DNA from: Armatimonadetes bacterium UBA1398
GTDB lineage: Bacteria; Armatimonadota; Zipacnadia; UBA1398
DNA: 64,000 nt
NCBI GenBank assembly: GCA_002305165.1
Contig: DBQI01000025.1
Span: 79,590-143,589 of the forward strand
Direction: 5' to 3'
The notes below the pieces were generated by a model, which had not been told where the DNA came from, made no database searches, and saw nothing but the letters and a program-made list of their open reading frames with translations. This document shows, one piece after another, positions 5,289-64,000 of this stretch; the stretch's first letter is position 1; each line of letters begins with the position of its first letter. Position numbers and translations under genes: made by a program.

Positions 5289-5292
5289 TGAT

Positions 5293-5324: not shown

Positions 5325-5512
5325 TCACGCCCTCGATGCGAGGGTGAGGGCGGCAAAGCTGCCCAGGTCGGGGTCCTCCAGCCCCTGGCCGTACGTGATC
5401 GAACGCCGAAGCACAGCAGCCATACCCCCCCGGGCAGCGACGCCATGTGAGACCTTTGGCGGCGACTCGTGTCCTATGGTCTGGTGACATCCTAGATTGC
5501 GAGTGAGACCCA

Positions 5513-6583: not shown

Positions 6584-6591
6584 GCGACCGC

Positions 6592-45644: not shown

Positions 45645-45888
45645 TGTCACCCCTTCTACTCCCCTGCCGCCTGGAGGGGCGGCCCTGGTGCGGACGTTTT
45701 CACCCGAGACGTCCGAGTACCCTGCGCGTTGCGCCTCCGACAGAGGGCAGCCGGAGCGGGCCTCAGCCTCCAGAGGCGTCGACACTCGGCTCCCGCCGCG
45801 TCCGGTCTCCTGCTTGGAGGGGAGGACCCGTGCCTGCAGCGCGTGGAGCGCGACGCTCTGCTGGTCGACGCCATGCCCGGCCTCGCGG

Positions 45889-46311
45889 TCACGGATAGCG
45901 GTAGTTGACGGTATACAGCTCGGGACTATCGCCGTAGGGGTGGATCACCTGCCCGTCGCGCTCCAGCCAGGCATGGGCGAGGATTCCCTTCTTCGGATCG
46001 AGCCGTACGCCTACGACGAGCTCCGACGGGCAGCCCGCCTGGCGCAGCAGCCGGTAGAGCACCAGGGACCGCATGAGGCAGCGCCGTCGTCTGATCGCGA
46101 GGAGGCCCAGGTCCGTGGCCGCCGCCAGCTCCTCAGGATCCCACCGCCTGCGCCCGAGGGGTCGGGTCCACCGCTCCATGAAGGCGGCGAAGTTCATGCG
46201 CCTGATGACCAGTCGTGCATGGGTGGCGCATCCCAGAACTCGTAGTAGCAGCGCGAGCTTGCGGGGTGAGAGGAGCCAACGGGAGTACTTGAGAGCGCGG
46301 CGGAGGGCCAT
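45889..46311 (-). CDS. Lasso-peptide B2-type transglutaminase-like cysteine protease homolog
   Basis: RRCLMRSLVLYRLLRQAGCPSELVVGVRLDPKKGILAHAWLERDGQVI matches the McjB/B2 pattern (catalytic Cys...AHAW...D). ATG at 46309-46311 (MALRRALKY) overlaps the upstream stop as ATGA. Confidence 0.8.
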   Translation of the reverse strand: MALRRALKYSRWLLSPRKLALLLRVLGCATHARLVIRRMNFAAFMERWTRPLGRRRWDPEELAAATDLGLLAIRRRRCLMRSLVLYRLLRQAGCPSELVVGVRLDPKKGILAHAWLERDGQVIHPYGDSPELYTVNYRYP

Positions 46312-47288
46312 CAAGAGGCGAGGTGGGCCTCCAGGAGGTCCGGAAGCCCCCCGGCGAGGACGTCCTGGCCGGCATGGAGATCCAGGCACTCACACTGGAG
46401 GACGAGCTGCTGGAGGATCGCCAGGTGTTCTTCAGCCTGCCGTCCCGCCGCGAGAACCATGGGACTGTGTTTGACCATGCGCCGAAGGGCCTCGCCGCGT
46501 GTCACTGGGCTCAGCGTGGAGGTGGGGTTCGGCGCTATCTGGGTGAAGATGATGTGGTTGGGATGGACGGGCGTGGAGTCATCGGCGGCGCTCAGAAAAG
46601 ATGGATCCATGGCGTAACGTCCGTCGAGTCGGACGTGCCCCACCCGGTCGTCGAGACCGAAGGCGGCGCGGGTGACCTCGCCAACGTTGAAGTCCTCGCG
46701 CCAGCCTTGCCCCCCGATCCCGCGATCGGTCACCCGAAGGTACAGCAGGTCATCGGTGACATATCCCCAGTTGCCCAGAGCCATGGCGATGGTTGCGGTG
46801 CTCTTCCCGTGGCGCTGGCCGCCGCAGAAGAGGAGGCAATCGTCCCCCTTCGCGACGCAGCCGGCATGGAGTTGGTAGAGGCCCAGCTGCCGGAAGAGCT
46901 CGATGATCGCCACGATGAGGGTCCGATGGTAGCCTTCGGGGGTGTCGCGCATCGTCTCATCGACCCATGCCCTGGCCTCAGTGGATCCCTCGGGGAGCTG
47001 GATGACCGCGCCGTCATCCACCAGCCAGAGGTTTCCGTCGAGGGAGTAGCCCTCGGTGCCGAAGTGCAGGAAACGCTGCTCGGCGTCGCGCCGGACCGAC
47101 TCGAAGAGCTCGGGCTCCTCCGGGTGGGAGGTGACCAGGATGCTCGCCGTGGGGCCGGAGAAACCGACAGGGCGCGCAAGCATGGGCCCCAGCACGGGCT
47201 GAAGCCCGTCTACCAGCCATGATTGGTCTGCCCGGAGATCCAGGCCCACATCGTGGAAGCGGTACCGTGCCGAATAGGGCGCGTTCAT
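46311..47288 (-). CDS. HPr-kinase-related P-loop protein (HprK-related kinase of RiPP-like neighbourhoods)
   Basis: LHAGCVAKGDDCLLFCGGQRHGKSTATIAMAL is an HPr-kinase-like P-loop (G-x-x-G-x-GKS/T), followed by YVTDDLLYL. Flanked by and translationally coupled to PqqD and B2 homologs. Confidence 0.7.
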   Translation of the reverse strand: MNAPYSARYRFHDVGLDLRADQSWLVDGLQPVLGPMLARPVGFSGPTASILVTSHPEEPELFESVRRDAEQRFLHFGTEGYSLDGNLWLVDDGAVIQLPEGSTEARAWVDETMRDTPEGYHRTLIVAIIELFRQLGLYQLHAGCVAKGDDCLLFCGGQRHGKSTATIAMALGNWGYVTDDLLYLRVTDRGIGGQGWREDFNVGEVTRAAFGLDDRVGHVRLDGRYAMDPSFLSAADDSTPVHPNHIIFTQIAPNPTSTLSPVTRGEALRRMVKHSPMVLAAGRQAEEHLAILQQLVLQCECLDLHAGQDVLAGGLPDLLEAHLAS

Positions 47289-47599
47289 CAGTCCTCTGTC
47301 GGCTCAGGCTCGGGCGTGGATGGCGTCACGAGGCCCTCGGCTAACAGCTCCTCACATAGGCTGATGACGGCTTCGCGCGCGTCATCGCCCTCGACATCGT
47401 ACTCGGCGGACAGATTGGCCGCGATGTCCCCCACACTGGCGCCCACCTGCATCATCTGCCAGACGCGCAGGCCCGTCTCGTTGAGACCGTAGTACTTACG
47501 CGTGCCCAGATGCAGGAGAACCGCCTCGTCCTCCATCGCCGTGAATACCACATCGGCGGCCCCGCTCAGACGGGTCGTTTCCGTCACAGATGCTCCCAT
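47288..47599 (-). CDS. PqqD-family protein (RiPP recognition element / lasso B1-like peptide chaperone)
   Basis: 103 aa. VVFTAMEDEAVLLHLGTRKYYGLNETGLRVWQMMQVGASVGDIAANLSAEYDV...AREAVISLCEELLAEGLV is the canonical PqqD pattern. RBS AAGGGG. The stop overlaps the next start (ATGA at 47286-47290). Confidence 0.8.
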   Translation of the reverse strand: MGASVTETTRLSGAADVVFTAMEDEAVLLHLGTRKYYGLNETGLRVWQMMQVGASVGDIAANLSAEYDVEGDDAREAVISLCEELLAEGLVTPSTPEPEPTED

Positions 47600-47690
47600 G
47601 CCCTTGGCCCCTTAGTGATGGCAGCCCAGACACCCTCGCTGCCATCGCGCTTATCCCTTACGACGCTATCCGACGCTTCGGACCCGTCAC

Positions 47691-48881
47691 TCACTCTAGC
47701 CACCGCAGTCCATCGGATGGCTTCGAGACGACGGAGAAGCACGCGCCCGCGTACTTCGGCACCGCCCGCTGGTACTCGGCTACCGCCCACGCACCCGCCT
47801 CCTCCGCTCCGGCTGGGTCGCAGATGCCGGCTGCGAACCCCCCAAAACCACCGCCACAGAACCTCGCCCCATAGACGCCTGGGGCGTGGTTCAGTATCCG
47901 TCCCAGGATCTGCTGCTCTTCGTTGCCCGTCTCGTAGTTGCCGATACTGCTCTCCAGAGACTGGCGGGCGCACTCTCCGAAGGCCTGGAGGTCCCTCGCG
48001 CGCCAAGCAGTAATGGCTCTCTCTACTCTTTCGGTCTCCGTCAGGAAATGCCTTGCTCTCCCGCGGTAGGGATGGGGCAGTTTCTCGAGTTCAGCCGCCA
48101 GTAGGTCCCGGGGTAGGTCGCCGAGGGCATGGATCTCCTCCCGCGGGGCGAAGCCCGTTCGCTCGGCGAGAAGCTTGGCGGCCTCACGACACTCATCGGT
48201 GCGGCTGTTGAAGCCGGTTGCCGCCAGTCGGCGGGGGATGCCCGAGTAGACGGCCACGATCGCCACATCGGGCCCGGGCTCCACGGTGACCTCGTTCGTC
48301 GCGCAGTCGAGGGTGACCATGTGTCCGGCCTTGGCGTTGACGATGATCGTTGGGTCAAGCAGCCCACAGTTGACGCCCACGTACTCGTTCTCCACGCGCA
48401 TCGCCGCCTCGGCGAGGGCGGGACGCTCCCACACCCTGCCGTTCACGTCGGCCAGGGCGCTGAGGAGGGCGAGGGAGAAGGCCGCGGACGAGCTCAGGCC
48501 CCCCGACGGGAGGCTCCCGGCCTCCACGCCATCGAAGCCCCGCTGCCGGTGCCCGAAGATCCGGGCCGCTCCTAGGAGGAAGAGCGACCAGTCGTGGCTG
48601 TCGCCCGCTCGCGAGACCGCGTCATCGGGGTGGAGGTGGGCGATGCTCGCATCGGTGGCGTCCCGGAGCCGCATGTTGGGCTCGGCCGTCGGCTTGTAGC
48701 CGAGGACGATGCCATGGTCGAGGGCGAAGCCGGTGACTTTGCCCCCCTGATGGTCGACGTGGGCGCCCACGAGGCAGGCACGGTAGGGCGAGAGCAGAAC
48801 GCGCCCCAGTCGCCGGTAGTGGGCTACGATGTTGCGCTGCTCGGGCGCATAGACGAAGCTGTCTTGGGTTGCTGTTGTCAT
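47691..48881 (-). CDS. GHMP-family sugar kinase (galactokinase-like)
   Basis: SPYRACLVGAHVDHQGGKV (compare the GalK signature PGRVNLIGEHTDY..G) and GHMP motif GSLPSGGLSSSAAFSLALLSAL. ATG at 48879-48881 follows AGGAA. The ORF track GTG start is 48914. Confidence 0.8.
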   Translation of the reverse strand: MTTATQDSFVYAPEQRNIVAHYRRLGRVLLSPYRACLVGAHVDHQGGKVTGFALDHGIVLGYKPTAEPNMRLRDATDASIAHLHPDDAVSRAGDSHDWSLFLLGAARIFGHRQRGFDGVEAGSLPSGGLSSSAAFSLALLSALADVNGRVWERPALAEAAMRVENEYVGVNCGLLDPTIIVNAKAGHMVTLDCATNEVTVEPGPDVAIVAVYSGIPRRLAATGFNSRTDECREAAKLLAERTGFAPREEIHALGDLPRDLLAAELEKLPHPYRGRARHFLTETERVERAITAWRARDLQAFGECARQSLESSIGNYETGNEEQQILGRILNHAPGVYGARFCGGGFGGFAAGICDPAGAEEAGAWAVAEYQRAVPKYAGACFSVVSKPSDGLRWLE

Positions 48882-49138
48882 GGTGGATATCAGTTCCTGT
48901 GGGGTAGTTCGCACTATCGGGCCAAAGGCCTCTCACGGACGGCGCCGTTCTGCGGACTCCCCGATCATACCCGAGTGATGCGCAGCAGGGTCTTCAGAAT
49001 CACTGCGAGGTCACTCAGCACCGTCGCGCGCGCCGTAGCGGGCGGAAGCACTGCCGTCCGCTCTACGCGGCGAGGGGACTGGGGTGGCAGGGACACGTGC
49101 CGCGGTCGCGGAACCATCGCCCACTCAAGGAGGCACCG

Positions 49139-50182: not shown

Positions 50183-50434
50183 ATGGCGAGGCTCACCATG
50201 GAGCTGCCTCCAGAGGTCTTCTCGGCCATCAGGCGTGGCCCCGAGGAGTTCCTCCGCGAGATGCGCTTGGCGGCAGCCGTGAAGTGGTACGAGTTGGGCG
50301 AGATCTCCCAGGAGAAGGCGGCGGCGGTCGCTGGCTTGAGGCGGGCGGAGTTCATCGACGCTCTGGGCCGCTACCGTGTCTCACCTTTCCAGTACACCGG
50401 GGAGGATATCGCGCGGGAATTGGGCGATGGGTGA
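50183..50434 (+). CDS. UPF0175-family antitoxin
   Basis: 83 aa. LREMRLAAAVKWYELGEISQEKAAAVAGLRRAEFIDALGRYRVSPFQYT is the UPF0175 pattern. RBS GGAGG. Overlaps the downstream PIN gene by 8 nt. Confidence 0.75.
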   Translation: MARLTMELPPEVFSAIRRGPEEFLREMRLAAAVKWYELGEISQEKAAAVAGLRRAEFIDALGRYRVSPFQYTGEDIARELGDG

Positions 50435-50909
50435 GCACTGGATCGTCAACGCATCGCCTCTGATCGTGCTCGCTAAGGTAGGCATGGCCGAGTTCCTGAT
50501 CGCTATGCCCGACTCATTGGTGACGTCGCAGGTTGTCGCCGATGAGATCCTGCGTGGGCCTGCCGAGGACCCCGCTGCACGGTTGGTGGCCTCGGGAGCG
50601 ATAGCCATAGTGGATGCCCCGCCGCCACCCGCGTTCCTCGTAGGCTGGGATCTCGGACCCGGAGAAACTTCCGTGCTCGCCCTGGCCTCCATGGAGCCCA
50701 GCCGCATCGCTGTGGTCGACGATGCGGCCGCCCGTCGGTGCGCGAACTCCCTCGGCGTCCCCACACGAGGCACCCTCAGTGTGTTGGTTCAGGCGAAGCG
50801 CTCCGGTCTGCTGGCGGAGATTGCTCCTGTACTCTCGCGGGTTCGGGCAGCCGGCCTGTATCTGTCCGATCGGCTCGTCAAAGAAGTGCTCGAACAGGCG
50901 CGGGAGTAG
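50427..50909 (+). CDS. DUF3368-type PIN-domain toxin (predicted RNase)
   Basis: MGEHWIVNASPLIVLAKVG...GPGETSVLALA...VVDDAAARRCANSLGVPTRGTLSVLVQAKRSGL is the typical partner of UPF0175 antitoxins. ATG at 50427. Confidence 0.75.
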   Translation: MGEHWIVNASPLIVLAKVGMAEFLIAMPDSLVTSQVVADEILRGPAEDPAARLVASGAIAIVDAPPPPAFLVGWDLGPGETSVLALASMEPSRIAVVDDAAARRCANSLGVPTRGTLSVLVQAKRSGLLAEIAPVLSRVRAAGLYLSDRLVKEVLEQARE

Positions 50910-50911
50910 GG

Positions 50912-51520
50912 CGCTGGCGAACAGCGGGCCGGACAGGCGGGACGCCTGGTGTGCTGGCCCAGGCGCACGAGGTATCCTTCGCCCGCATCTCGGGCACCTC
51001 TTTCCTTGCGCCGGCTGGAGGTTCGCCCACATCTGCTCCACGGGGTTGAGCCCGGGCGCGTAGGGCGGCAGGGACTCGACCCGGAGCCAATGTGTATGGT
51101 CGGTGATGTACGCACACACCAGCTTGCTGCGATGGGCGGCGAGGCGATCCCAGATCACCGACACCCGCTTCCAGTTCATGTGATCGGTGATGACGGGGGT
51201 GCATCCTCGAGGCGCCCAGGTGGAGCGGACCGACGGCTTCTGGGAGAACCCACTCTCGTCCACGAACACCACGGTCCCGCCGCGTCTCAGAGCCCCCCTT
51301 TTGTCCGAGGCTAATCCTCGCGAACCCATTGGCCGACGACACGCTGACCCAAAGTCGGCCAGCGACCTCGGTCGGATCAAGGCCCTCCTCGAATAGCGCC
51401 CCCGCCCGAAGACGCTGCTTCTCCAACTCCGACTGGCTCGATGGCTCCCGTGCCTCTGCTTGTCCCATGAACACTATTGCGAACCAGATCACCATTTCCC
51501 CTTTTTGCTCGCCATCTCAT
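50912..51520 (-). mobile_element. Decayed IS630-family transposase remnant (frameshifted, internally deleted); boundaries approximate
   Basis: The HTH part lies in one frame from ATG 51468 (MGQAEAREPSSQSELEKQRLRAGALFEEGLDPTEVAGRL). The DDE part lies in another frame (VVFVDESGFSQKPSVRSTWAPRGCTPV...NWKRVSVIWDRLAAHRSK...LPPYAPGLNPVEQMW), with the usual ~60 aa between NWKR and WDRL missing. The total is only ~180 codons versus ~340 for an intact IS630 transposase. AT-rich right end. Confidence 0.65.
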
Positions 51521-51540: not shown

Positions 51541-53136
51541 CTACGGCGCCACTACCAGCACTCGCTTCCCGCCCCGCCGCACGATGCGCACCGCCGAGAA
51601 GTCGGTCTCGTCGAGGGCCCAAGGGATGAGTAGCTGAGGGGACCCATCCCTCGCGCGGACGATGCTGCCCTCGAGTCGCCACCAGATCTCGCGGCCGTCG
51701 GTGGTTCGCCCGATCGGTTCGGTGTCACCCTCGCCTATCTCCGTTTCGTGCTCGCTGATCCACTCCACGTCGCCTGGCTTCCGGATGCGCATGACGGTGG
51801 TGTCCGGCTCCAGGAGTTCCTGAGGGGAGCGCGCGAGCATCTCGTCGAACTCTCTCTGGCTAAGCTCGGTGTACGCCAACTCGCCTCGTCCACGCCCTTT
51901 GTGCATCCACATCCCCAGGTACTCTTGCGGGGCGTCGGGCACGTACGACGGGCCGCCGCCATCCATCGCGCACTCGCGCATGGGAACCTCCAACAGGGGC
52001 CCTACGCGGATCTCAAGCACGTTGCGCGGATCGCTGTCGGCGTAGACCTGGATCGACTGCTCTACCGTCTGTCGGTCGGGTGCGTAGACGGTGACCGTCG
52101 CCCGCCCTGCCTGGGCCTCCCGGGTGATCCAGAGCCCGCCATCCGTCGCGTGGCGGTCCGTTGTATACCCGCATACATTCACGCTAGCCTCCGAGAGGTC
52201 GAAGCCCGGATCATCCTTAGGAGGCAGCAGGCGAACCCGGACGGTCGACAGCCGTTCTGGGCAGAAGGGCAGGAAGGCCAGGATCCGCACCGTGCCTACG
52301 GCTCCAGAGGGCAGCTCCAGGGCTTGCTGGACGAGGCTTACCACCCGCACGCAGTCACTCAGCCGGTCGTCGGGAAGCGGGGCGATACCGCCCCTGTTTT
52401 GGACAATGGCTGCCATGGGGAGGAGCGCCACCACCTCGTCCCACGAGACGGCATCCATCGTTCCCGCCAGGGTTCTCAGCTCCGAACTCCTGCGGGTCTC
52501 CTGAAGCGTTCCATCCGGCATCAGAACCCTATCGCCTACCCATGCGTAGGTGACGCACTCACGGAATGGCCCGGCGGGGCCGCTGTCTGCGCTCTGGTCG
52601 AGGAGCAGGGCGTCTGACTCCGTCGTCGCGGTCGCGGCGGGGTCTACGGCGGGCGCCGACTCCGTCGTACTCAGGGCACCGTTGAGCGCGGGAAGGTCGT
52701 AGAGCGCGCGGTACAGCTCGGGGTCCTCGATGACCGGCGGGGCTGGCGGCTCCTGGGGTAGCCGGATCTCGAGCGCGTACGGTACGGATATCCCCCGGTC
52801 GGGATCCGAGGGCAGCACCACGAAGCCCGGAGGCGACTCGGCCCGCGAGTCGATCACGCTCACGAGAGTGCTCCCGCTGGGCAGCGCGAGCACATCCACC
52901 CAGGCTGGGTACAGTGGGTGCCCGTCCGTTCGCACAACGCGAACCTGGGTGACCCGCCCCCCGAGTTCGATGTGGATCGTCCCATCGTGCTGGGTCATCC
53001 CACGGGCGCGCATAAGCCCCACCGCGCCTGGGACGCTTGTCACGGTTGGCGGAAGGGGCACGGGCGGAGGAGGCGCGGGCTTCGAGCATCCGAGGCCGAG
53101 CATGCAGAGAAGGAGTAGCGGCGCATACCGGATCAT
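51541..53136 (-). CDS. Hypothetical lipoprotein (531 aa)
   Basis: MIRYAPLLLLCMLGLGCSKPAPPPP is a lipobox (LGLGC). Long ORF, no recognisable family. Confidence 0.6.
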   Translation of the reverse strand: MIRYAPLLLLCMLGLGCSKPAPPPPVPLPPTVTSVPGAVGLMRARGMTQHDGTIHIELGGRVTQVRVVRTDGHPLYPAWVDVLALPSGSTLVSVIDSRAESPPGFVVLPSDPDRGISVPYALEIRLPQEPPAPPVIEDPELYRALYDLPALNGALSTTESAPAVDPAATATTESDALLLDQSADSGPAGPFRECVTYAWVGDRVLMPDGTLQETRRSSELRTLAGTMDAVSWDEVVALLPMAAIVQNRGGIAPLPDDRLSDCVRVVSLVQQALELPSGAVGTVRILAFLPFCPERLSTVRVRLLPPKDDPGFDLSEASVNVCGYTTDRHATDGGLWITREAQAGRATVTVYAPDRQTVEQSIQVYADSDPRNVLEIRVGPLLEVPMRECAMDGGGPSYVPDAPQEYLGMWMHKGRGRGELAYTELSQREFDEMLARSPQELLEPDTTVMRIRKPGDVEWISEHETEIGEGDTEPIGRTTDGREIWWRLEGSIVRARDGSPQLLIPWALDETDFSAVRIVRRGGKRVLVVAP

Positions 53137-53483: not shown

Positions 53484-54692
53484 CTACCTCATCGCTTCGC
53501 GCATGGTGGCGCGGAGGGCCTCGATGGTGCGGTCCATTTCGGCAGGCCCGAGGGTGGGGTGGACCAGGAGCATCATGCTCGTCTCGCCCAGCTCCCTTGC
53601 GACGGGCAGCCGCTCCGTCGGGCCGAAACCGTCGAAGGCCTTTTCCAGGTAGATCTCGGGGCAGGAGCCGGTGAAGCAGGGCACCCCGCACCGGTTCACT
53701 TCGGCGATGATGCGGTCGCGGGACCAGTCGCTTCGCAGAGCGTCGGGCACGATGTCGAGATAGTACTTATAGTAGCTGTGATGGATGTGCGCCGGCGGGA
53801 TGGAGACGCGAAGCCCGGGGAGGGCGCCCAGGCCTTCATGGAGCATGGCGGCGTTGGCCCGCCGCTTGGCGACCCACTCGGGCAGATGCTGGAGCATGAG
53901 GCGTCCGATGGCGGCCTGCATCTCGGTGAGCCGGTAGTTGGTGCCGGGAGTCTCGCGCACCCAGCGGAAGGCGGAGGACCAGTTCGTGTCGCCGCCCGTC
54001 TCCGTGGCACGCTTGCCGTGGTCCTTGTAGGCCCACATGGACTCCCAGAGGTCACGCCGGGCCGTGGTGACCATGCCGCCCTCGCCGCCGGTGGTCAGGA
54101 TCTTGTCCTGGCAGAAGGAGAAGCTGCCGATGACTCCCATGCTGCCGACGGGCCGGCCCCGGTAGAGGGCGCCGTGGGCTTGGGCGCAGTCCTCGATGAC
54201 CGCAAGGCCTCGGTCTTCGGCGAGGGCGAGGATGCCGTCCATCTCGCAGGGCCAGCCAGCGAGGTGCACGAGGACAATCGCCTTGGTCCGATCGCTGAGC
54301 ACCGGCGCGATTGTCTCGGCAGTCAGGTTCTGGCTATCGCGGTCGACGTCGGCGAAGACGGGCGTGGCGCCTCGAAGGAGCACGCAGCTCGCTGAAGCGA
54401 TGAAGCTCCGTGGGGTGACGACGACCTCATCCTCGGCCCCGATGTGCAGGGCATGGAGGGCCATGTCGAGGGTGACGGTCCCGTTCGCCGCGGCAATAGC
54501 GTAATCGACGCCGACGTGAGCGGCGTACTCGGCCTCGAACTGCCGCCCCTCGTTGCCGGTCCAGTAGTTGATCCTGCCCGACCGCAGGACGGTGGAAACG
54601 GCGTCCACCATCTCCTCATCGAGCACCGGCCACGAGGGGAAGGGCTCGACGGCTGGCCTGTCGTCGATCGATTCATGCGTCCGCGAGCTCAT
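53484..54692 (-). CDS. DegT/DnrJ/EryC1/StrS-family PLP-dependent sugar aminotransferase
   Basis: EAEYAAHVGVDYAIAAANGTVTLDMALHAL, VIEDCAQAHGA, and SFSFCQDKILTTGGEGGMV (PLP lysine). Confidence 0.9.
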   Translation of the reverse strand: MSSRTHESIDDRPAVEPFPSWPVLDEEMVDAVSTVLRSGRINYWTGNEGRQFEAEYAAHVGVDYAIAAANGTVTLDMALHALHIGAEDEVVVTPRSFIASASCVLLRGATPVFADVDRDSQNLTAETIAPVLSDRTKAIVLVHLAGWPCEMDGILALAEDRGLAVIEDCAQAHGALYRGRPVGSMGVIGSFSFCQDKILTTGGEGGMVTTARRDLWESMWAYKDHGKRATETGGDTNWSSAFRWVRETPGTNYRLTEMQAAIGRLMLQHLPEWVAKRRANAAMLHEGLGALPGLRVSIPPAHIHHSYYKYYLDIVPDALRSDWSRDRIIAEVNRCGVPCFTGSCPEIYLEKAFDGFGPTERLPVARELGETSMMLLVHPTLGPAEMDRTIEALRATMREAMR

Positions 54693-54818
54693 CGCACACC
54701 CCGTTCACACTCTGTTGGTTCGCCCACCGAGGCTCGCCGCCCTGCCCGATTCAGAGGCGCGGCAGGCCCTCGAAGCGCTCTGCCGGGGATTGCTCGACCG
54801 GCACTCCTAGCCTGACGC

Positions 54819-56075
54819 CTAACTCCAGATGCCCCGGGTGTCGACAACGACCTTGCCTGCGTAGGCGCTGGGAGCCACCTCGCGGAACTGCCGGTGGTCC
54901 ACCAGCAGCACCAGGATGTCCGCTTCCGCAAGAGCCGCCTCCAGCGTAGCGGCCACTACCCCCAAAGCCGTCAGCTTCGACGGCAGGGACGACACGTACG
55001 GCTCCACCGCCAGGATCCGGCCTACGCCCTCCTCGACAAGCCGCGCCGTGATCGCCACTGCAGGCGACTCCCGTAGGTCGTCCACATCCGCCTTGAACGC
55101 CAGCCCCAGGCATGCGATGACCGGATCTTCCAGCCGCGCCGCCTCCCTCTTCACCCGCTCCACCACCACCCCGGGCTTGCCGTCATTCACCTCCCGCGCT
55201 TGACGCATGAGCTTCGTCTGCTCCGGCGCCGACGATACGATGAACCACGGATCGATGGCGATGCAGTGGCCGCCCACCCCAGGGCCCGGCTTCAGGATGT
55301 TCACTCGAGGGTGCCGGTTCGCGAAGCTGATGAGCTGCCACACATCGATGTCGAACCGCTCGCACACCAAGGACAGCTCGTTCGCGAAGGCGATATTCAC
55401 ATCACGGTAGGCGTTCTCGCAGAGCTTGCAGAGCTCCGCCGTGCGGCAGTCGGTCGCGAGGATGGCGCCCTGGCAGAACCGCTGGTAGAGGGCGACGGCG
55501 GCCTCGGTGGAGGCCTCGTCGACGCCGCCGACGACCCGGTCGTTCCCCACGAGCTCCTTCATGATCTGCCCAGGCAGGACGCGCTCGGGACAGTGGGCGA
55601 CGAAGATCCGGTCCTCGCCGACGGACTCGGGATCCGCTCCACGGGTAGGCACGGCGAGGTCGGGCCGCTCCTCGGCGATCCACCGGCAAACCGCCTCGGT
55701 GGCGCCTACGGGGATGGTGGACTCGACGACCACCAGGTTGCCCGGACGGAGGACGGGGGCGATGGCACGCGCGGCGGACTCGACGTAGCTGAGGTCGGGC
55801 CGATGGTCGGGGGTCATGGGCGTCGGGACGGCGAGGACGAAGGCGTCGGCGGGCTGGGGCTCGGTGAAGGCGAGGAGGTTCCCCTGCGCGACCGCGTCAC
55901 GGACCGCGACATCGAGATCGGGCTCGTGGATGTGGATCCGGCCCTCGTTGATGGTCCGGACCGCGTCGGCGTTCGTGTCGACACCGAGCACCTTCATCCC
56001 GTTGGCGGCCAGGACGCTCGCCGTCGGCAGACCGATATAACCTAAACCTACCACGCACACGCTATCGAATGACAT
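54819..56075 (-). CDS. wecC: UDP-N-acetyl-D-mannosamine dehydrogenase-like nucleotide-sugar dehydrogenase
   Basis: MSFDSVCVVGLGYIGLPTASVLAANGMKVLGVDTNADAVRTINEGRIHIHEPDL is near-collinear with E. coli WecC (MSFATISVIGLGYIGLPTAAAFASRQKQVIGVDINQHAVDTINRGEIHIVEPDL). GPGVGGHCI catalytic Cys motif. Confidence 0.85.
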   Translation of the reverse strand: MSFDSVCVVGLGYIGLPTASVLAANGMKVLGVDTNADAVRTINEGRIHIHEPDLDVAVRDAVAQGNLLAFTEPQPADAFVLAVPTPMTPDHRPDLSYVESAARAIAPVLRPGNLVVVESTIPVGATEAVCRWIAEERPDLAVPTRGADPESVGEDRIFVAHCPERVLPGQIMKELVGNDRVVGGVDEASTEAAVALYQRFCQGAILATDCRTAELCKLCENAYRDVNIAFANELSLVCERFDIDVWQLISFANRHPRVNILKPGPGVGGHCIAIDPWFIVSSAPEQTKLMRQAREVNDGKPGVVVERVKREAARLEDPVIACLGLAFKADVDDLRESPAVAITARLVEEGVGRILAVEPYVSSLPSKLTALGVVAATLEAALAEADILVLLVDHRQFREVAPSAYAGKVVVDTRGIWS

Positions 56076-56256
56076 CAGCTGAGTTGCTCCTTCTCGCTAG
56101 TTCCCAAACTCATTGTAGCGTACGCACCCATCCACGACCTGGAACCCACGGGAGGTGGCACCGGTTCGAGCGGTGGCGCACCGTCAGAAAGGGACCGTCG
56201 GCTGCGCGAGGCCTGTGTCGAATCTATGCGTAGGAAGGTTCCGAAGGAGGTCTGAC

Positions 56257-56764
56257 ACGGCCACCGAGAAGCGGATCGCGGCGAACTGCTGCAACGCGCA
56301 GCGGTCCATGGGCCCAAGGACACCGGCGGGGAAGGCTAGGTCGAGTCGCAACGCGCTCAAACACGGGATCCTCAGTCGGGATCTCATCGAGAAGGGCGAG
56401 TCGGCCGAGGAACTGGCCCACGGGCGAACTCGAGCGCTGGTTCCTGGACCGCATCGCCGGCTCGCTGTGGCAGCTGCGCCGAGTATACGTCATCGAGGCG
56501 GGCCTTTACGAGAACCAGACGCTGAGTTTCGGAGACGGCCGCCCGAAGATCGAGGCTTGCCGGCCGGAGACCCAGGGGATTCCGGCGAGACCCTTCGGCA
56601 ATGAGTGCGGCAACGGCGTAGCGGTGAACCAGTTCCATATGTACGAGAGCGCGGTGGAACGGAGTCTCTACCGGGCGCTGCACGAACTGCAGCGGCTGCA
56701 GGCGGCTCGGGGCGTACGACGGAGCGCGCCGCCGGCGGTGGATGTGACGCTGGAGGTGCGGTGA
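56257..56764 (+). pseudogene. Frameshifted, start-less copy of a small conserved hypothetical gene (RIAAN..NAQ.S.GPRT..GKA.SS.NA.KHG family)
   Basis: The N-terminal homology (TEKRIAANCCNAQRSMGPRTPAGKARSSRNALKHGILS) is in one frame. The C-terminal homology (RWFLDRIAGSLWQLRRVYVIEAGLYEN...MYESAVERSLYRALHELQRLQAAR, stop 56762-56764) is in the +1 frame. GAAGGAGG lies 6 nt before an ACG (56257) where an ATG would be expected. Family recognition is from memory only. Confidence 0.4.
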
Positions 56765-57215
56765 GTGGAGAGTGGAGGGTGGTGAGTGAGCACTGACGAG
56801 TGAGCAGACAGGAGCGAGGATGGGGCCGGGCCGTTTCAGTGCCCCCCTCCCTGGCCTTCGGCCGTCCCTCCCCCGCGGCGATGCACGCAGGAGAGGGGCA
56901 GAGCTTAGCAGGACCGTGTCGGTGGAACAGGCCGACTAACGAGAACCTGCGGGCCGGATAGCGACCCACCGGCCGTCGGGCTTCGCTGCGCTGCGCCCTG
57001 GCATGACGCCCTGACAAGCTGCACGCGAGGGAGGGGGCAGGAGAGCGCGGGGTATGCCAGGGCGTTGGGCTCGACAAGGCCGTGGCAAGCTGCACGCGAA
57101 CGAGCATGGGGTTCACGAGCAAGACCGCGCCGCTGGATACACCCCGGCCTCGGGCCCAGCGGCTGCGAAGGTAGCCCCCGTGGCATGGCTTCAGATGTGC
57201 GCGGCGACGCGGCTG

Positions 57216-57896
57216 TCACTGCCACTCGATATGGGCCTCCAGGATGCCTCGCAGCGCAGCGAGGGAGGGGCTTTCATGGTCGACGTCGTCTCCGCTGTGC
57301 ACAGATTCATGCAGCGAGCCCTCACGACGCACCCGGACGGTTAGCCAGCCGAGTGCCTTGGGGCCGGCGAAGTCTTTCCCCGGGTTGTCGGCGACGTACA
57401 GACACTGCGATCCAGAAGCGGCCAGCGCATCCTGGACGAGGACGAAGGCCGCTGGACTGGGCTTGCTGTTGCCGGGCCCGAGTTCGGCTGTGCAGACTAT
57501 AGGGTCCAGGAGCCCGACAAGGCCAAGGGCGTGCGCTTTGCGCTGCTGACTCGCTGCTGGCCCATCCGTTATCGCCGCGAGGGGCAGGTGGGGCCGCAAC
57601 CATGCAAGGGTGTCGGCTGCATCCGGCAGCAAGGTAATGTGAGGTGTGTGCTCGCGGTAATAGTCAACCATGGCAGGCACCTGGGCCTGCAGATCGCCCC
57701 GCCCGAGAGCCGCAAGCGTCAGATCGAAGACGTTTCCCCGCCTCCCGGAGAGGAACAGAGCCCAGGCCGCGTCGGCGAAGCCGTCCACCCCCCACTCAGA
57801 TTCCATCCAGGCTCCAACAGCCTTGAAGCCGCTGTGTACGTAGTCACGCTCCAGGTACAGCGTGTCATCTATATCGAAGACCGCGCATTGGATCAC
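57216..57896 (-). CDS. HAD-superfamily hydrolase
   Basis: Motif I AVFDIDDTLY. Later ITDGPAASQ and VADNPGKDF motifs. GTGA overlap with the upstream ATP-grasp stop. Confidence 0.8.
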   Translation of the reverse strand: MIQCAVFDIDDTLYLERDYVHSGFKAVGAWMESEWGVDGFADAAWALFLSGRRGNVFDLTLAALGRGDLQAQVPAMVDYYREHTPHITLLPDAADTLAWLRPHLPLAAITDGPAASQQRKAHALGLVGLLDPIVCTAELGPGNSKPSPAAFVLVQDALAASGSQCLYVADNPGKDFAGPKALGWLTVRVRREGSLHESVHSGDDVDHESPSLAALRGILEAHIEWQ

Positions 57897-58918
57897 TCGG
57901 AGAGGCCCGCCTCCGCACCATCAACGAACACGGCCTCGTCGTACCGAAGCATCACTAGGCCGGGTCGCCAGCGGTCCCAGAACCGCGGAATGGGCCGGCC
58001 CAACGCCTCATCGATGAGCCACGCCGGGAAGTCGGCTCCCGCCGCACGACTTAGCGGGTATCCGCCGCCGAACCGCGGGTTGATCTCGATGACTCTCATC
58101 TCGTCGGTGGCATCGTCTACGAAGACCTGCACGTTCAGCGGGCCGCGCGGATCGGGCAGTAACGATGCGATGCTTCTGACTAGCTGCTGGAGCGCATCAT
58201 GGCGCACTGTGACTGCCTTGCTAACCTCGCCGGAGCGAACCTCCAACCTACGGCGGGGTACGGTGCAGACACAATCCCCGGCACGGCTCACGAAGGCGTC
58301 TACCGTAAACTCCGCGCCGCGTGCGATCGACTGCACTAGGTACCCGGACTCCCCAGCGTCGCCTGCTCGTCCTTGGGGTCGGGCCTGCTCGGGGATCCCG
58401 TGGAGGTCGGATGGACAACCAGCGAGACGAACACCCAGTGAGCCACTTCCGCGCCTGGGCTTCACGATGACCGGGTAGTCGAGTCCGTCCGCAGAGGCCT
58501 GAGCCTCCGCGAGTGTCCACTGCGCCACGGTCGGGAAGCCGTGGGCGACCAGCCAGTCGTGGGTGGTCTGTTTGTCGGCCCCAATGCTCACCGTCGCTGT
58601 GCTGCTGCAGCAGATCCTAGTGCCAGCAGCTTCGAACATGGGGTGATGGGCAGCATAGACGGGCAGTTCGGGGTCGATGGTGGGGACCAGCAGGTCTACG
58701 GCGGTGCGGCGGCAGATCTCCATGACGGCGTCCACGAACTCGTCTGAACTGCACGGAGGAACGATGTAGCGTTCGTCGGCAGCATGCCATGCAGGGGCCA
58801 GCGGGGAGGCGTCCAAGCCGACTAGGTGGGGCTCAGCGATGCCCGCCTTCGCCATGGCGTCAGTAAAGGCGTGGGCCAGGGCAACGCGACGCCCGGCCGA
58901 CGAGAGTGCTACACACAT
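57893..58918 (-). CDS. ATP-grasp domain enzyme (carboxylate-amine ligase-like)
   Basis: YPVIVKPRRGSGSLGV, TVDAFV, and LNVQVFVDDATDEMRVIEINPRFGGGYPLS (ATP-grasp Mg/ATP site). ATG at 58916-58918 (MCVALSSAGRRV). The ORF track TTG start is 58939. Confidence 0.8.
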   Translation of the reverse strand: MCVALSSAGRRVALAHAFTDAMAKAGIAEPHLVGLDASPLAPAWHAADERYIVPPCSSDEFVDAVMEICRRTAVDLLVPTIDPELPVYAAHHPMFEAAGTRICCSSTATVSIGADKQTTHDWLVAHGFPTVAQWTLAEAQASADGLDYPVIVKPRRGSGSLGVRLAGCPSDLHGIPEQARPQGRAGDAGESGYLVQSIARGAEFTVDAFVSRAGDCVCTVPRRRLEVRSGEVSKAVTVRHDALQQLVRSIASLLPDPRGPLNVQVFVDDATDEMRVIEINPRFGGGYPLSRAAGADFPAWLIDEALGRPIPRFWDRWRPGLVMLRYDEAVFVDGAEAGLSE

Positions 58919-58998
58919 CCGCTTCGGGGGAGAATGCAAGGTCTTCCACTACCTTCCTGACGGGGCGCGTAGGGGGCGCACAAGCTGACGACCCCAGA

Positions 58999-59204
58999 TC
59001 AGCGGTGGCCGAGGAACTCCGGCATTGTCGCCTCGCCGTCCGCGCTGATCCCCTCTCGCCGGGCTACTCTCCAGAGGGTCAGTAGTATGATCCAGATGTC
59101 CAGGCCGAGCGACCAGTGGTCCACATACCAGACGTCCAGCCTGAACCGTTCATCCCAACACACCGCGTTGCGACCATTCACCTGGGCCCAGCCGATTAGG
59201 CGGG
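58999..59204 (-). pseudogene. Relic 3' fragment (last ~65 codons) of a second polyprenyl-phosphate sugar transferase
   Basis: LIGWAQVNGRNAVCWDERFRLDVWYVDHWSLGLDIWIILLTLWRVARREGISADGEATMPEFLGHR aligns with the C-terminus of the intact transferase at 60852..61469 (LSAVNGRNAQSWSDKLAWDIAYVERQSLWLDLSILGRTVLTVISRRGASDVAPMPEFLG). No N-terminal TM or catalytic part is present. It begins right at the PIG-L gene stop. Confidence 0.6.
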
Positions 59205-59207
59205 GGC

Positions 59208-59876
59208 TCAGGCGACGACCTGCCTCAGTAGCATGAAGGCTTCAGCCGCGCGGAGCCCCACGGTAGCACCGCGGAGTCGAGCCAAGGCTTCGAGGGCCTC
59301 AACGGAGCGTTCATGCGGGAATGGCTGTACCTGCATCTCGAACGCACGGAAGGCCTCGAGCTTGGTACTCAGATGGTCGGTGATGTCCACGAAGACGTTG
59401 GGCTGGAACGCCGGCGTGATACCAGGCGCGTTCCAGTTGGTCTCGGAAAGGGTCTCGTAGGCGTAGACCACAGAGGGCGTGGACGCGCGGCAAGGGCGGA
59501 CAGCAACCATGGCCGATAGCGCAGCGAGCTGATGGTCCAGGTGGATGTCGCCCGCGAAGGGCAGGTACACCTGCTGAGGCCGAAGCTCGAGCATGAGCGC
59601 TCCGAGGGCGGAGTTCACTTCTGCGTGGGCAACCGTGTCGAGTCGCGCCGCAGGGAAGTCGAGGAACCGTGTCTCGGATACGCCGAGGATCTGGTGCGCA
59701 CGGAGATTGTGATCGCGATTCCTGAGCGTCCCTTCCTCCGCAAAGTCGGGGGGGTACCCACGAGTCAGCACCGCCACGATGACGGAACGCCCCTCACGAG
59801 CCAGACGAGCGATGGTCCCTCCGACGCCCAGAACCTCATCGTCGGGGTGTGGGGCGAGGACAAGAACGGGGCTCAT
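59208..59876 (-). CDS. PIG-L/LmbE-family N-acetyl-sugar deacetylase
   Basis: VLVLAPHPDDEVLGVGGTIARLAREGRSVIVAVLT signature (AHPDDE), plus a later HxDH motif (IHLDHQ). Confidence 0.85.
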   Translation of the reverse strand: MSPVLVLAPHPDDEVLGVGGTIARLAREGRSVIVAVLTRGYPPDFAEEGTLRNRDHNLRAHQILGVSETRFLDFPAARLDTVAHAEVNSALGALMLELRPQQVYLPFAGDIHLDHQLAALSAMVAVRPCRASTPSVVYAYETLSETNWNAPGITPAFQPNVFVDITDHLSTKLEAFRAFEMQVQPFPHERSVEALEALARLRGATVGLRAAEAFMLLRQVVA

Positions 59877-60859
59877 CGATGATCAGCCCCCTGTCTCGTC
59901 GACGTGCCGGGGCAGTCGGGAGGATCAACGGGTCCCGTCGGTCTCGCGAACCCCCCTGACTGAGGGAGCTCGCGTGCTGGCACGCCAGCAACCGTGGCGC
60001 CGTCCGGAACATCGTGCCTCACAAGGGCGCACATCCCCACGGTGGCGTTGCGCCCCACCCGAACGCGATGCATGACTGCGGCGTGCGACGCGATCCAGGT
60101 GCGTCGTCCCACGAAGCAGCTCCCCGAGAGGGCAACATGGGTAAGAATGACGGCGTGGGGCTCGATGTGGCAGTTGTGGGCGATCTGGGCGAGGTTGCCG
60201 ACTTTGGCTCCCTCTTCGATCACAGTGTCCCCCAGGCAGCCACGGTCGATGCATGCGTTGGCACCGATCTCCACGTCGTCGCCAATGGAAACGCCGCCAA
60301 TGTGGGGCCACTTCTCCCACTCGTCAGCCTCGGTCGGCTGGTAGCCAAAGCCGTCCATACCGATCACCGCGCCGGCCTGGATCGAGACACGGGTGCCGAT
60401 CCTTACGCGGTCGCCGATATGGTTATGCCCGTGAAGGATCGACTCGGCCCCCACTACTGAGTTCCCAACGAAGCAGAATGGGCCGATGTGAGCTGTGGGA
60501 TGGATACTGGCGGATCTGCTCACGCATGCCGTGGGATGAACACCCGGCTCAGGCGGCGGTGGGGCGAACCACTGCCGGAAGGCGCGGACGAAGGCCAGGC
60601 GCGGATCGCGGACAGCGATGAAGGTGGTTGCGTCACACGCTGATGGAACACTGACCTCGGAGCTGCAGATCACCGCGCCCGCGAGAGTGGACCGTAGCAT
60701 AGCGGCGGCTTCCTCTCCGCGCCGATCGCAGAAAGTGAGCACATGACTACCAGCCGCCTCCGTGATGGGGCCAACGGCTGACAGCTCACGCGATGGGTCA
60801 CCAGTAACGGCACCGGCATTGAGCCCTAGAAACCGCGCAATCTCGGATACTCTAACCAT
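59873..60859 (-). CDS. LpxD-like left-handed beta-helix N-acyltransferase
   Basis: LpxD-type N-terminal domain (MVRVSEIARFLGLNAGAVTGD...VLTFCDRRGEE). Hexapeptide repeats (IHPTAHIGPFCFVGNSVVGAESILHGHNHIGDRVRIGTRVSIQAGAVIGMDGFGY). ATG at 60859 overlaps the sugar transferase stop by 8 nt. Confidence 0.8.
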   Translation of the reverse strand: MVRVSEIARFLGLNAGAVTGDPSRELSAVGPITEAAGSHVLTFCDRRGEEAAAMLRSTLAGAVICSSEVSVPSACDATTFIAVRDPRLAFVRAFRQWFAPPPPEPGVHPTACVSRSASIHPTAHIGPFCFVGNSVVGAESILHGHNHIGDRVRIGTRVSIQAGAVIGMDGFGYQPTEADEWEKWPHIGGVSIGDDVEIGANACIDRGCLGDTVIEEGAKVGNLAQIAHNCHIEPHAVILTHVALSGSCFVGRRTWIASHAAVMHRVRVGRNATVGMCALVRHDVPDGATVAGVPARELPQSGGFARPTGPVDPPDCPGTSTRQGADHR

Positions 60860-61469
60860 CAGCTTCCTTCTCCGTACCAAGGAACTCAGGCATGGGGGCA
60901 ACGTCACTTGCGCCACGACGTGAGATGACCGTGAGGACCGTTCTGCCGAGGATGCTCAGGTCCAGCCACAGGCTTTGGCGTTCCACGTAGGCGATATCCC
61001 AAGCGAGTTTGTCGCTCCAGGACTGGGCATTCCTACCGTTCACGGCACTGAGAGTGGTGAGTCCGGGCTTTACATCGAGACGCCGGCGCTGTTCTGGGTT
61101 GTAGCGGTTGAGGTACTTGAGCGGGTGCGGTCTGGTGCCAACGAGGGACATCTCACCTTTGAGTACATTCCACAACTGGGGTAGCTCATCCAGACTCGTC
61201 GCCCGCAGGAGACCACCGATCCGCGTCGTGCGTTCGGCGTCAGGAAGCAGATGTCCATCAGCGTCTCGATCGTTCCTCATGGTTCGGAACTTCAGAACCG
61301 TGAATGGTCTGCCGTGCAGACCTAGTCGCTGCTGCCGAAAGAGCACCGGGCGGCCCATGGTGAGCCAGACGACGAGGGCAAGCAGAGCAAGCGTGGGGGC
61401 GAGACCGATAAGCGCAATGGCTGAGAAGAGAACATCGAGGCTGCGCTTGGCGGTGGCGTGAACGCTCAT
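60852..61469 (-). CDS. Small (PglC/WbaP-C-type) undecaprenyl-phosphate sugar phosphotransferase
   Basis: KRSLDVLFSAIALIGLAPTLALLALVVWLTMGRPVLFRQQRLGLHGRPFTVLKFRTM, DELPQLWNVLKGEMSLVGTRP. Confidence 0.9.
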   Translation of the reverse strand: MSVHATAKRSLDVLFSAIALIGLAPTLALLALVVWLTMGRPVLFRQQRLGLHGRPFTVLKFRTMRNDRDADGHLLPDAERTTRIGGLLRATSLDELPQLWNVLKGEMSLVGTRPHPLKYLNRYNPEQRRRLDVKPGLTTLSAVNGRNAQSWSDKLAWDIAYVERQSLWLDLSILGRTVLTVISRRGASDVAPMPEFLGTEKEADG

Positions 61470-62590
61470 CGGATCTCTGAACCCTGGGCAGCGTCTATCT
61501 CATACACGATGGTTGAGTCATCAAGACCCCGTAAGCCCGTGCAGTAGGCTACTAGATGGCGAGCACTGGGGTTGAGGCCTTCGGGAAACTCGACGCGCGG
61601 GAACTGCATGAGACCGTAGAGGCGTGGGGACAGAAGGCACATGGAGGAGATGGCATCGATAGGCAGGCTCGCACAGCGCTGCCACGTAGAGAGGTCCTCC
61701 GACCCCATCCAGATGTGAGCATGCCTGGTGTCGTTCTCGCCTCCCGGCTCCGCGGTGGTGGCGACGAAGAAGCGACTCCCGACTTGGCATACACCGAAGC
61801 AGGAGTTCTCCGCCTCCTGTACACGGTGGAGCCTCCCAGTGGCCTTGTCAATCACGGTGATGGCGTTGGCGGCATACGGCGTATCGGTTGCCGTGACGAG
61901 GGAGTCGGGTGTTGGTAGCAGACGGTAGAATCGGGATTCCTGATCGCCTCGGAGCACCTCGCGGACATCGCCGAAGTCGCTCGAAGCGTGCAACAGCCGA
62001 CATTCGCCGGGACAGTCTCCGGTGGCGATCCAGAAGCAGTCGGACCAACGGTCGTAGGCAATGGCATGAACGTGTTTTATGGCACCTGCTGGGAAGGTGT
62101 AAACCGGGTGCCAGGAGAGACCACTGTCAGCACTCCCGTAGATATGGACCTCGACCCGCTCAGGGTTGTTGAAGTACTCCCCAAAGCAGGCGAAGCCAGA
62201 GGGGGCAGAGGCGAGTGACACGGGCCGTGTGCCGCGCGTGATGTGCCGTACACGCGCGGCAGTCTGGGAGTCCGCTGTGACTCGGTAGATGCCCTTTCTG
62301 TAGACGAGCAGCCTGGTCAGGTCAGGGAGAATCGTCAGTCGGGAGATGGAGGCGCGAGTGAGGCGCCGACCCAACCGAGTAGCACCGGCCAGTCTCAGAC
62401 GTGGCGAGTGAATCTGTAGTGTGCAGTCATGGTGCAGCGTGCGGCCTAGGTCATCGGTGCGGAGGAGACGGGTGCCCCGTGCTAAGTAGAGGAGGCCGCC
62501 ATGGAACAACAGCGCCCGCGCCCCTCGGAGCACGCGCACGGGCTTCAGAGTCAGGGATAGCGGGCCGCCAGTAGCTGCCCTGGGAAGCAT
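61466..62590 (-). CDS. Hypothetical protein, beta-propeller-like with one Asp-box (BNR) motif
   Basis: 374-aa ORF, ATGA-coupled to the sugar transferase. SADSGLSW matches the S-x-D-x-G-x-x-W Asp-box. Otherwise unrecognised. Confidence 0.55.
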   Translation of the reverse strand: MLPRAATGGPLSLTLKPVRVLRGARALLFHGGLLYLARGTRLLRTDDLGRTLHHDCTLQIHSPRLRLAGATRLGRRLTRASISRLTILPDLTRLLVYRKGIYRVTADSQTAARVRHITRGTRPVSLASAPSGFACFGEYFNNPERVEVHIYGSADSGLSWHPVYTFPAGAIKHVHAIAYDRWSDCFWIATGDCPGECRLLHASSDFGDVREVLRGDQESRFYRLLPTPDSLVTATDTPYAANAITVIDKATGRLHRVQEAENSCFGVCQVGSRFFVATTAEPGGENDTRHAHIWMGSEDLSTWQRCASLPIDAISSMCLLSPRLYGLMQFPRVEFPEGLNPSARHLVAYCTGLRGLDDSTIVYEIDAAQGSEIR

Positions 62591-62610
62591 GTTTCCAGGG
62601 CAATGATCGG

Positions 62611-63849: not shown

Positions 63850-63854
63850 GGGGG

Positions 63855-64000
63855 TCAGTAGCCCTTCCCGCTGACAGGGGACACACGTACCCGTACACGG
63901 CTGAGCATCTGCCGCATGGTAGGATCGACGCTCCAGTGAACGGTGACAGTTCGATCCGCAAGATGGACACGCATCCAATCCCGCTCGAACGACACACATG
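63855..64000 (-). CDS. 3' end (47 codons) of an upstream gene that starts outside the window
   Basis: The frame is open from the window edge to TGA at 63855-63857 (…FERDWMRVHLADRTVTVHWSVDPTMRQMLSRVRVRVSPVSGKGY*), 5 nt before the GT4 start. Function unknown. Confidence 0.3.
   Translation of the reverse strand, partial: CVSFERDWMRVHLADRTVTVHWSVDPTMRQMLSRVRVRVSPVSGKGY

Follow-up and report, generated by a model that had tools for sequence, protein, structure and literature searches.

Kinase-containing lasso peptide clusters, among them those of paeninodin (PadeK/ThcoK), Sphingobium (SyanK) and pseudomycoidin (PsmK/PsmN), encode the same three protein types as a locus that we have analyzed on the minus strand (positions 45889-47599) of a 64-kb stretch of DNA from Armatimonadetes bacterium UBA1398, contig DBQI01000025.1. 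This whole stretch is referred to as the window. The three proteins are a PqqD-family recognition element (RRE) for RiPPs (peptides synthesized ribosomally and modified after translation), an HPr-kinase-like protein and a B2 leader peptidase. HPr-kinase homologues phosphorylate linear lasso precursors on the C-terminal Ser, and in pseudomycoidin a lasso kinase and a nucleotidyltransferase jointly install a phospho-hexose (PMC8498205). The B2 protease, of family C96, needs the RRE and a Thr at position -2 of the leader, and is listed only for lasso peptides in a 2023 review of RiPP leader proteases; lasso leader cleavage and ring closure appear to be coupled (PMC10885120). The leader motif of these clusters (YxxPxL...T-x) also occurs in relatives of the window locus, and the nucleotidyltransferase-B2 fusion reported from Firmicutes (PMC8498205) has a counterpart there. 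In contrast to the kinase-containing lasso clusters, the window has no Asn-synthetase-like cyclase and its clade has no local precursor. We propose, with a probability of roughly 55%, that the locus is functional and belongs to a distinct, cyclase-independent branch of the lasso-type RiPP maturation machinery.

Three other systems share parts with the locus. The HPr-rel-A system (TIGR04352 HprK_rel_A, TIGR04353 PqqD_rel_X and TIGR04355 HprK_rel_B), which is defined only by comparative genomics, likewise combines an HprK-related kinase with a PqqD-family chaperone. An earlier note, made from the sequence of the window alone, had likened the locus to such a system, but membership did not hold up: the window proteins fail the curated cutoffs of TIGR04352 (38.4 versus 200 bits) and TIGR04353 (23.1 versus 35 bits), and there is no second HprK-like gene (kinase B) in the window. 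The SynChlorMet (SCM) cassette consists of ScmC (HprK-like), ScmD (PqqD-like) and the radical S-adenosylmethionine (SAM) enzymes ScmE/F. Distant relatives of the middle protein of the locus carry PF27840 (ScmC, a new Pfam family) and PF07475 (Hpr_kinase_C), and in two related loci without a cyclase (L064 and L022) radical SAM enzymes accompany a kinase-like gene and a leader peptide. The window locus itself differs from SCM in that its PqqD protein scores 26 bits against TIGR04248 (ScmD, cutoff 100), its middle protein has no ScmC match, no radical SAM domain was found by Pfam among the sizeable open reading frames (ORFs) of the window, and a B2 protease is present. To our knowledge, a B2 protease is not part of the SCM definition. 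HPr kinase/phosphorylase (HprK/P), finally, has a catalytic core that aligns with the middle protein, whose whole model superposes on ATP-PEPCK; however, there is no equivalog match, the N-terminal domain and genomic context are different, and nothing links the locus to an HPr substrate. A literature search returned no paper describing the use of a C96 lasso leader protease without a cyclase, and none describing HprK-related kinase A or ScmC.

Parts of the locus and the missing cyclase

The PqqD protein (47288-47599, 103 aa) matches PF05402 at 66.7 bits against a Pfam cutoff of 23.4. Its best NCBIfam match is lasso_PqqD_Bac (59 bits, under the cutoff of 80), and among solved structures it matches only lasso B1 proteins, namely TbiB1 (5v1u, E 4e-9), 9x90_B and TfuB1; it is the PqqD-type RRE that a lasso peptide cluster has as its B1 component. 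The B2 protein (45889-46311, 140 aa from its ATG), a transglutaminase-like cysteine protease, scores 58 bits with PF13471 and 55 bits with NF033537, 'lasso peptide biosynthesis B2' (cutoff 33). Cys78 and His113 do not vary among 13 homologues, and the protein has the catalytic Cys/His of the C96 leader peptidase of lasso clusters. No Pfam family matches the middle protein (46311-47288, 325 aa). Its homologues conserve His141, G161-K162-S163/T-T164 and D179-D180, and their family profile matches HPr kinase/phosphorylase structures (3tqf, 1jb1, 2qmh and 1ko7; E ~1e-5) over the His...GxxGKS/T...DD core. An AlphaFold (AF2) model with a pLDDT of 90.9 has the PEPCK/HprK fold, and its top Foldseek matches are ATP-PEPCK (E 1e-8, TMq 0.55), which shares the HprK/P fold. 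With its Walker A motif, preceding His, following Asp-Asp pair and fold, the protein has the features of HprK/PEPCK-fold P-loop kinases and can be placed in the ScmC/HprK-related superfamily. At profile level this superfamily is large: 16,728 representatives reach E<=1e-3, and 205 reach E<=1e-30. The window's own kinase-like clade is tiny, with seven matches among 5.8 billion clusters and, in a collection of 185,579 species genomes, one Armatimonadia metagenome-assembled genome (MAG). The earlier note had read the parts as lasso-type, which the family and fold evidence bears out. It had also proposed a check with hidden Markov models (HMMs), which PqqD and B2 pass in Pfam; the middle protein has no match there and is HprK-like by profile and fold.

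The other two parts of a lasso cluster are an Asn-synthetase-like macrolactam cyclase (C) and a precursor (A) with the YxxPxL...T-x leader and Asp/Glu at core positions 7-9. The note had reported neither in the window, and dedicated searches agree. Pfam scans found no Asn_synthase domain among all sizeable ORFs of the window, and a 72-sequence cyclase profile, run with filters off on all six frames, gave no match at E<0.1. No cyclase is found within 45 kb on one side of the three genes or 16 kb on the other. A leader profile was built from six bona fide leaders, which themselves score 35-42 bits, and nothing in the window scored above 7 bits; strict and permissive regular-expression scans returned only out-of-frame or antisense junk. 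The profile alone missed the leaders in L023, L084 and L064 of the comparison loci (L001-L104, from metagenomes and named genomes), and the permissive motif scan was added. Strict and permissive expressions and the profile HMM together gave no credible leader peptide in L001-L006, L016, L017, L103 or L104. When small ORFs were compared for conservation between the window and its relatives, every tblastn match lay inside a known gene in another frame. The acidic, Pro-rich C-terminal tail of the PqqD protein was considered as a possible substrate and dropped for its lack of conservation in relatives.

The next-nearest B2 proteins (35-42% identity) occur in clusters with the same three parts plus an Asn_synthase protein, a small ORF and often an NTP_transf_5 nucleotidyltransferase. 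The best NCBIfam match of these Asn_synthase proteins is the lasso isopeptide cyclase, and the small ORFs carry a classical lasso leader, Y-x-x-P-x-L-x3-G-x5-T-x. The nearest B2 outgroups (L011, L013 and L015) are complete PqqD-B2-kinase-cyclase-leader clusters. Of 80 B2 loci surveyed in named genomes and classified with local profiles, about 70, mostly from Solirubrobacterales, were complete clusters of this kind. For a minority, the flanking +-10 kb contained no cyclase: L044 and L060 (Longimicrobium), L052 (a Gemmatimonadales chromosome), L064 (Pyrinomonadaceae), L077 (Anaerolineae) and L084 (Anaeromyxobacter). The same was found for four metagenomic loci reached via the kinase-like protein (L007, L018, L022 and L023). 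The cyclase profile gave no match at E<0.1 in the window, L001-L007, L016-L018, L022, L023, L044, L052, L060, L064, L077 or L084, and four of these (L052, L064, L077 and L084) sit on Mb-scale contigs or chromosomes. The cyclase-less loci span Armatimonadota, Gemmatimonadota, Acidobacteriota, Chloroflexota and Myxococcota in addition to metagenomes.

Neighbour-joining trees were built for B2 (87 sequences) and the kinase-like protein (60 sequences), each with 200 bootstraps. In both trees all cyclase-less loci, the window included, cluster apart from all cyclase-containing loci, and three apparent exceptions (L013, L069 and L092) have cyclases by the 72-sequence profile. Support in the kinase tree is moderate, with the exact split in 124 of 200 replicates and the split with at most one misplaced taxon in 189. 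By these sequence comparisons, the lack of a cyclase is a property of the whole clade and not a local accident. PqqD was rejected as a marker of the cyclase-less group, as the window PqqD is no closer to the PqqDs of cyclase-less than to those of cyclase-containing loci.

Precursor peptides and the proposed maturation pathway

Precursors beside cyclase-less loci retain the lasso leader motif (Y/FxxPxL...T-x). They differ in the core: an Asp or Glu at predicted core positions 7-9, as used for lasso ring closure, is present in 62 of 64 strict-motif precursors from cyclase-containing loci and in none of six from cyclase-less loci (Fisher p ~2e-7, or 5e-7 on distinct core types, for sequences that are not phylogenetically independent). 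The cyclase-less cores are GSGTFGSFF in L007, GGQSKGTTPPA in L023, FFQSATSGVTN in L064, QPVRKQHQADV... and QSGNHGQILVHGTGHGNNNSMWG in L018, and TSHQQGIGGSDG... in L084. The L007 locus, a compact and self-contained unit of kinase, B2 and precursor, has a strong terminator-like hairpin at its end. Tailoring genes in cyclase-less loci encode a B12-radical SAM enzyme (L022), a radical SAM enzyme and a sulfotransferase (L064), and NTP_transf_5-B2 fusions (L052, L044 and L060).

In the pathway that we propose, the RRE would bind a lasso-type leader (Y/F-x-x-P-x-L ... T-x), the kinase-like protein would transfer phosphate from ATP to a hydroxyl, or to a phosphate already present, on a Ser/Thr-rich core, and B2 would cut after the Thr(-2)-x site. 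The product would be a short linear, probably phosphorylated peptide with no macrolactam ring, and our confidence in this specific product is lower than in the general reading. Both the phosphorylation chemistry and the order of steps are proposed by analogy with the paeninodin-type lasso kinases (PMC8498205). We further infer that the window enzymes have a peptide substrate. With no precursor nearby in the Armatimonadia clade, the enzymes would have to act in trans on an unlinked one.

A broader version of this proposal is put forward tentatively, as a possibility that we rate below even odds. The kinase-like/B2 pair, usually with a PqqD RRE, might define an undescribed and widespread RiPP family making short linear phosphorylated peptides, without macrolactam or threading and in some cases radical-SAM-, sulfo- or nucleotidyl-modified. 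In Armatimonadia, the coupling of the RRE to a galactokinase-like kinase might hint at a phospho-glycosylated product from an unlinked precursor. Pseudomycoidin is the nearest precedent for an RRE tied to a sugar kinase, although it is only an analogy.

If the cyclase-independent reading is correct, a separate branch lacks both the cyclase and the ring-acceptor residue yet retains the leader motif together with the RRE, the protease and the kinase: lasso-type machinery without the lasso. The lasso 'front end' would then be a portable leader-handling module serving a new family of linear, probably phosphorylated peptides, and genome-mining tools that demand a cyclase beside B2 would miss such loci. 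It would also raise the question of why an RRE is tied to a sugar kinase in Armatimonadia. The window locus is a hard test case, as its precursor is missing; the related L007, L018 and L023 operons offer concrete cases in which the idea is directly testable.

Several of the related loci have features of their own. L064 (13437-17032 of the Pyrinomonadaceae MAG contig DATNCH010000109) is an SCM-like cassette on one strand, in the order leader, HprK/ScmC-like kinase, radical SAM enzyme, sulfotransferase-like protein and PqqD. Its leader peptide ends in FVEPTISVPVDVLEATT, directly before the core given above, and its B2 gene lies about 3 kb past the PqqD end of the cassette; the lasso-type leader motif is here shared with a radical-SAM pathway. 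L018 (2597-3010 of metagenome contig Ga0315280_10025370) encodes two precursors in tandem; their lasso-type leaders are nearly identical, and their 23-aa cores begin with Gln, which would permit pyroglutamate formation after cleavage. On the flanks of these precursors lie an M42-peptidase-like gene, a VanZ gene and two genes for secreted proteins or lipoproteins, and the precursors are convergent with the kinase-B2 genes. In Gemmatimonadota (L052, 8876-10240, and also L044 and L060), B2 is fused to an N-terminal NTP_transf_5 domain to give proteins of 454-484 aa. The kinase-like and PqqD genes of L044 and L052 are on the opposite strand from the fusion gene and L060 has B2 only; none of the three has a cyclase within +-10 kb or a leader peptide found nearby. 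Complete kinase-type lasso clusters are very common in Solirubrobacterales MAGs (L024-L102), where many loci have two kinase-like and two PqqD genes, and two core families recur (ACLGGSGGD…CKSxP and GxxxGESTD…TFSTP). We are not aware of any characterized product of these Solirubrobacterales clusters.

Two gene pairs and the alternative explanations

A galactokinase-like GHMP sugar kinase gene (47691-48914, minus strand) lies upstream of the PqqD gene. Its product scores above the cutoffs of GHMP_kinases_N, GHMP_kinases_C and GalKase_gal_bdg and below those of the galactokinase equivalogs. The order GHMP-PqqD-kinase-B2-recC is found in the window, L016, L017 and L002. In the Armatimonadia MAG Bin_177, a kinase-B2 pair without PqqD follows a Band_7 gene and a ribbon-helix-helix ORF and precedes a convergent heparinase gene (L001, and also L006). 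The GHMP kinase of Bin_177 (81% identity) is on another contig, where PqqD (72%) comes next and an unrelated ORF after that (L103). Another Armatimonadia MAG (CAZCER010000005; L104, 40-8458) has GHMP (67%) and PqqD (64%) directly upstream of the str operon (rpsL, rpsG, fusA, tuf, rplC), and the genome scans gave no kinase-like or B2 match for this MAG. In Armatimonadia, PqqD was seen only behind the GHMP kinase, and the two remain neighbours in the window, L002, L017, L103 and L104 despite changes on both flanks; kinase-B2 is therefore separable from GHMP-PqqD, and the locus is made up of two separable pairs. The indivisible triad of the earlier note is accordingly abandoned. Its view that the neighbours are unusual stands in part: GHMP adjacency is conserved, but with PqqD rather than with kinase-B2, and the recCBD adjacency is not conserved outside one sub-lineage. 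It is possible that the GHMP kinase is a functional partner of PqqD.

This segregation of PqqD with the GHMP kinase is one of several points that weigh against a cyclase-independent peptide pathway, as it means that the three genes may not form one pathway. The trees are simple neighbour-joining trees of divergent sequences, and bootstrap support in the B2 tree (132 columns) is weak, with the exact split in 39 of 200 replicates. Few lineages are represented among the six cyclase-less precursors, whose cleavage sites are predictions. The cores of cyclase-less loci mostly lack a terminal Ser, the site used by the characterized lasso kinases. No precursor was found in the 64 kb or in the loci of close relatives, so a peptide substrate for the window clade is assumed. 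The cyclase search covered the 64-kb window, and a cyclase may be encoded elsewhere in the source genome.

A non-RiPP role is unlikely, although it fares best among the alternatives. The kinase-like protein and the B2-like protease would then act on a protein or a small molecule of envelope glycan metabolism, and PqqD would serve the GHMP kinase or the glycan cluster. The conserved GHMP-PqqD pair in Armatimonadia is in keeping with such a role, as are the failure to find a precursor, the position of the three genes, which in both the window and L002 lie at a glycan cluster's edge, the DegT/Bac_transf/GT genes that the L015 cluster abuts, and weak matches of related cluster kinases to FomB, a small-molecule phosphate kinase. 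At L009, an ScmC-like kinase lies within a Wzy/GT2/Bac_transf operon and a PqqD gene is near. Set against these are the nearest matches of PqqD, which are lasso B1 leader-binding proteins, a B2 score above the lasso B2 cutoff, and the leader-bearing peptides adjacent to related cyclase-less loci. We also know of no case of an RRE serving a GHMP kinase, which counts against this role.

We regard an ordinary split lasso cluster as improbable. Here the cyclase and the precursor would be encoded elsewhere in the genome, with a normal lasso peptide, possibly phosphorylated, as the product. By sequence, all three proteins are of lasso type, and in a clade with no local precursor something must be encoded elsewhere; complete kinase-containing lasso clusters are common (PMC8498205), and 'incomplete' lasso clusters are often annotation artefacts (PMC7533575). 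However, the window kinase and B2 fall in a group whose loci all lack a cyclase within +-10 kb, also where they sit on Mb-scale contigs or chromosomes, and no cyclase is found in the searched flanks of the window. This clade-wide lack of a cyclase, together with adjacent precursors that have no ring-acceptor residue, argues against a split cluster. The earlier note had named such a cluster, with cyclase and precursor elsewhere at the same phylogenetic distribution, as the finding that would overturn its reading; the cyclase-less clade and the precursor cores speak against it.

It is very improbable that the locus is what remains of a former lasso cluster, decaying and now without a function. 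The missing cyclase and precursor would fit such a remnant, as would the rarity of the clade, with its seven homologues. Yet relatives at 87%, 60%, 59% and 57% identity retain intact frames, the frames being intact across five lineages, and the overlapping start and stop codons and the catalytic residues are likewise conserved. Values of dN/dS are 0.16-0.25 for PqqD, 0.22-0.30 for the middle protein and 0.17-0.34 for B2, similar to RecC (0.32), with 0.10 for the GHMP kinase; an unsaturated pair (dS about 0.25-0.30) gives dN/dS in the same range. The three genes are intact and under purifying selection, and these ratios (0.16-0.34 overall) argue that the locus is not decaying.

A link to RecBCD in DNA repair or phage defence has least in its favour and can hardly be credited. 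In the window, L002 and L017 the genes immediately precede recC-recB-recD on the same strand, with no terminator detected in the spacer, but kinase-B2 has no recBCD neighbours in L001/L006 or any other cyclase-less locus, and GHMP-PqqD is not followed by recC in L103 and L104. At E<=0.01, PADLOC models matched none of the proteins searched, which were PqqD, B2, the kinase-like protein, the GHMP kinase and two neighbours. The recCBD adjacency is confined to one sub-lineage and is probably incidental.

Junctions, spacers and other features of the window

The three minus-strand ORFs are present where the earlier note had placed them. Its junction coordinates are also right, but the overlaps are of 1 nt (TGATG) and not the 4-nt ATGA that it had described: at both junctions the TGA stop shares its A with the next ATG, so that the kinase-like gene starts on the last base of the PqqD stop and B2 likewise on that of the kinase-like stop. 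Such overlaps favour translational coupling, and the claim of obligate co-translation was an overstatement. The mechanical B2 ORF reaches a GTG at 46389. The B2 start was placed at the junction ATG because the B2 proteins of relatives (138-145 aa) begin at that same overlapping ATG.

Distances to the flanking genes were as described, with spacers of 91 and 244 nt. The spacer between the GHMP kinase and PqqD genes (47600-47690) contains no ORF, leader or structured RNA and is not conserved relative to L002. That between B2 and the probable recC start (45645-45888) contains only non-conserved Arg-rich ORFs and no leader peptide; its counterpart in L002 and L017 is 112-137 nt long and cannot be aligned with it. 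Neither flanking spacer aligns with relatives or matches an Rfam family, and predictions of structured RNA, promoters and terminators in them gave nothing above chance. The probable ATG of recC is at 45644. The mechanical ORF runs 47 codons further upstream to a GTG (45645-45785), an extension that is probably not translated, judging from the RecC proteins of relatives, which align from the ATG.

Three large ORFs of the window have a strong coding signal and no Pfam family: 2043-5288 (1081 aa), 25057-27807 (916 aa) and 51541-53136 (531 aa, a probable lipoprotein). At 50183-51380, between the SGL/GHMP genes and the glycan cluster, a toxin-antitoxin-like UPF0175/DUF3368 pair on the plus strand overlaps a minus-strand DDE_3 transposase ORF that matches in two fragments. 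This looks like a mobile-element scar, and the element is absent at the equivalent place in L002.

Outside the window, the L009 kinase gene mentioned above is translationally coupled inside its Wzy_C/GT2/Bac_transf exopolysaccharide operon (2199-9025), with the PqqD gene about 5 kb upstream, an arrangement which hints that HprK-like and PqqD proteins also work in glycan contexts. The envelope-glycan cluster of the window itself (53484-63999) encodes a DegT aminotransferase, a UDP-glucose dehydrogenase, a HAD hydrolase, a PylC-like ATP-grasp protein, a PIG-L deacetylase, an LpxD-like hexapeptide acyltransferase, a Bac_transf protein, a 462-aa ORF and a GT4 glycosyltransferase. Its ATP-grasp/HAD/PIG-L trio suggests an amino-acid-decorated sugar.

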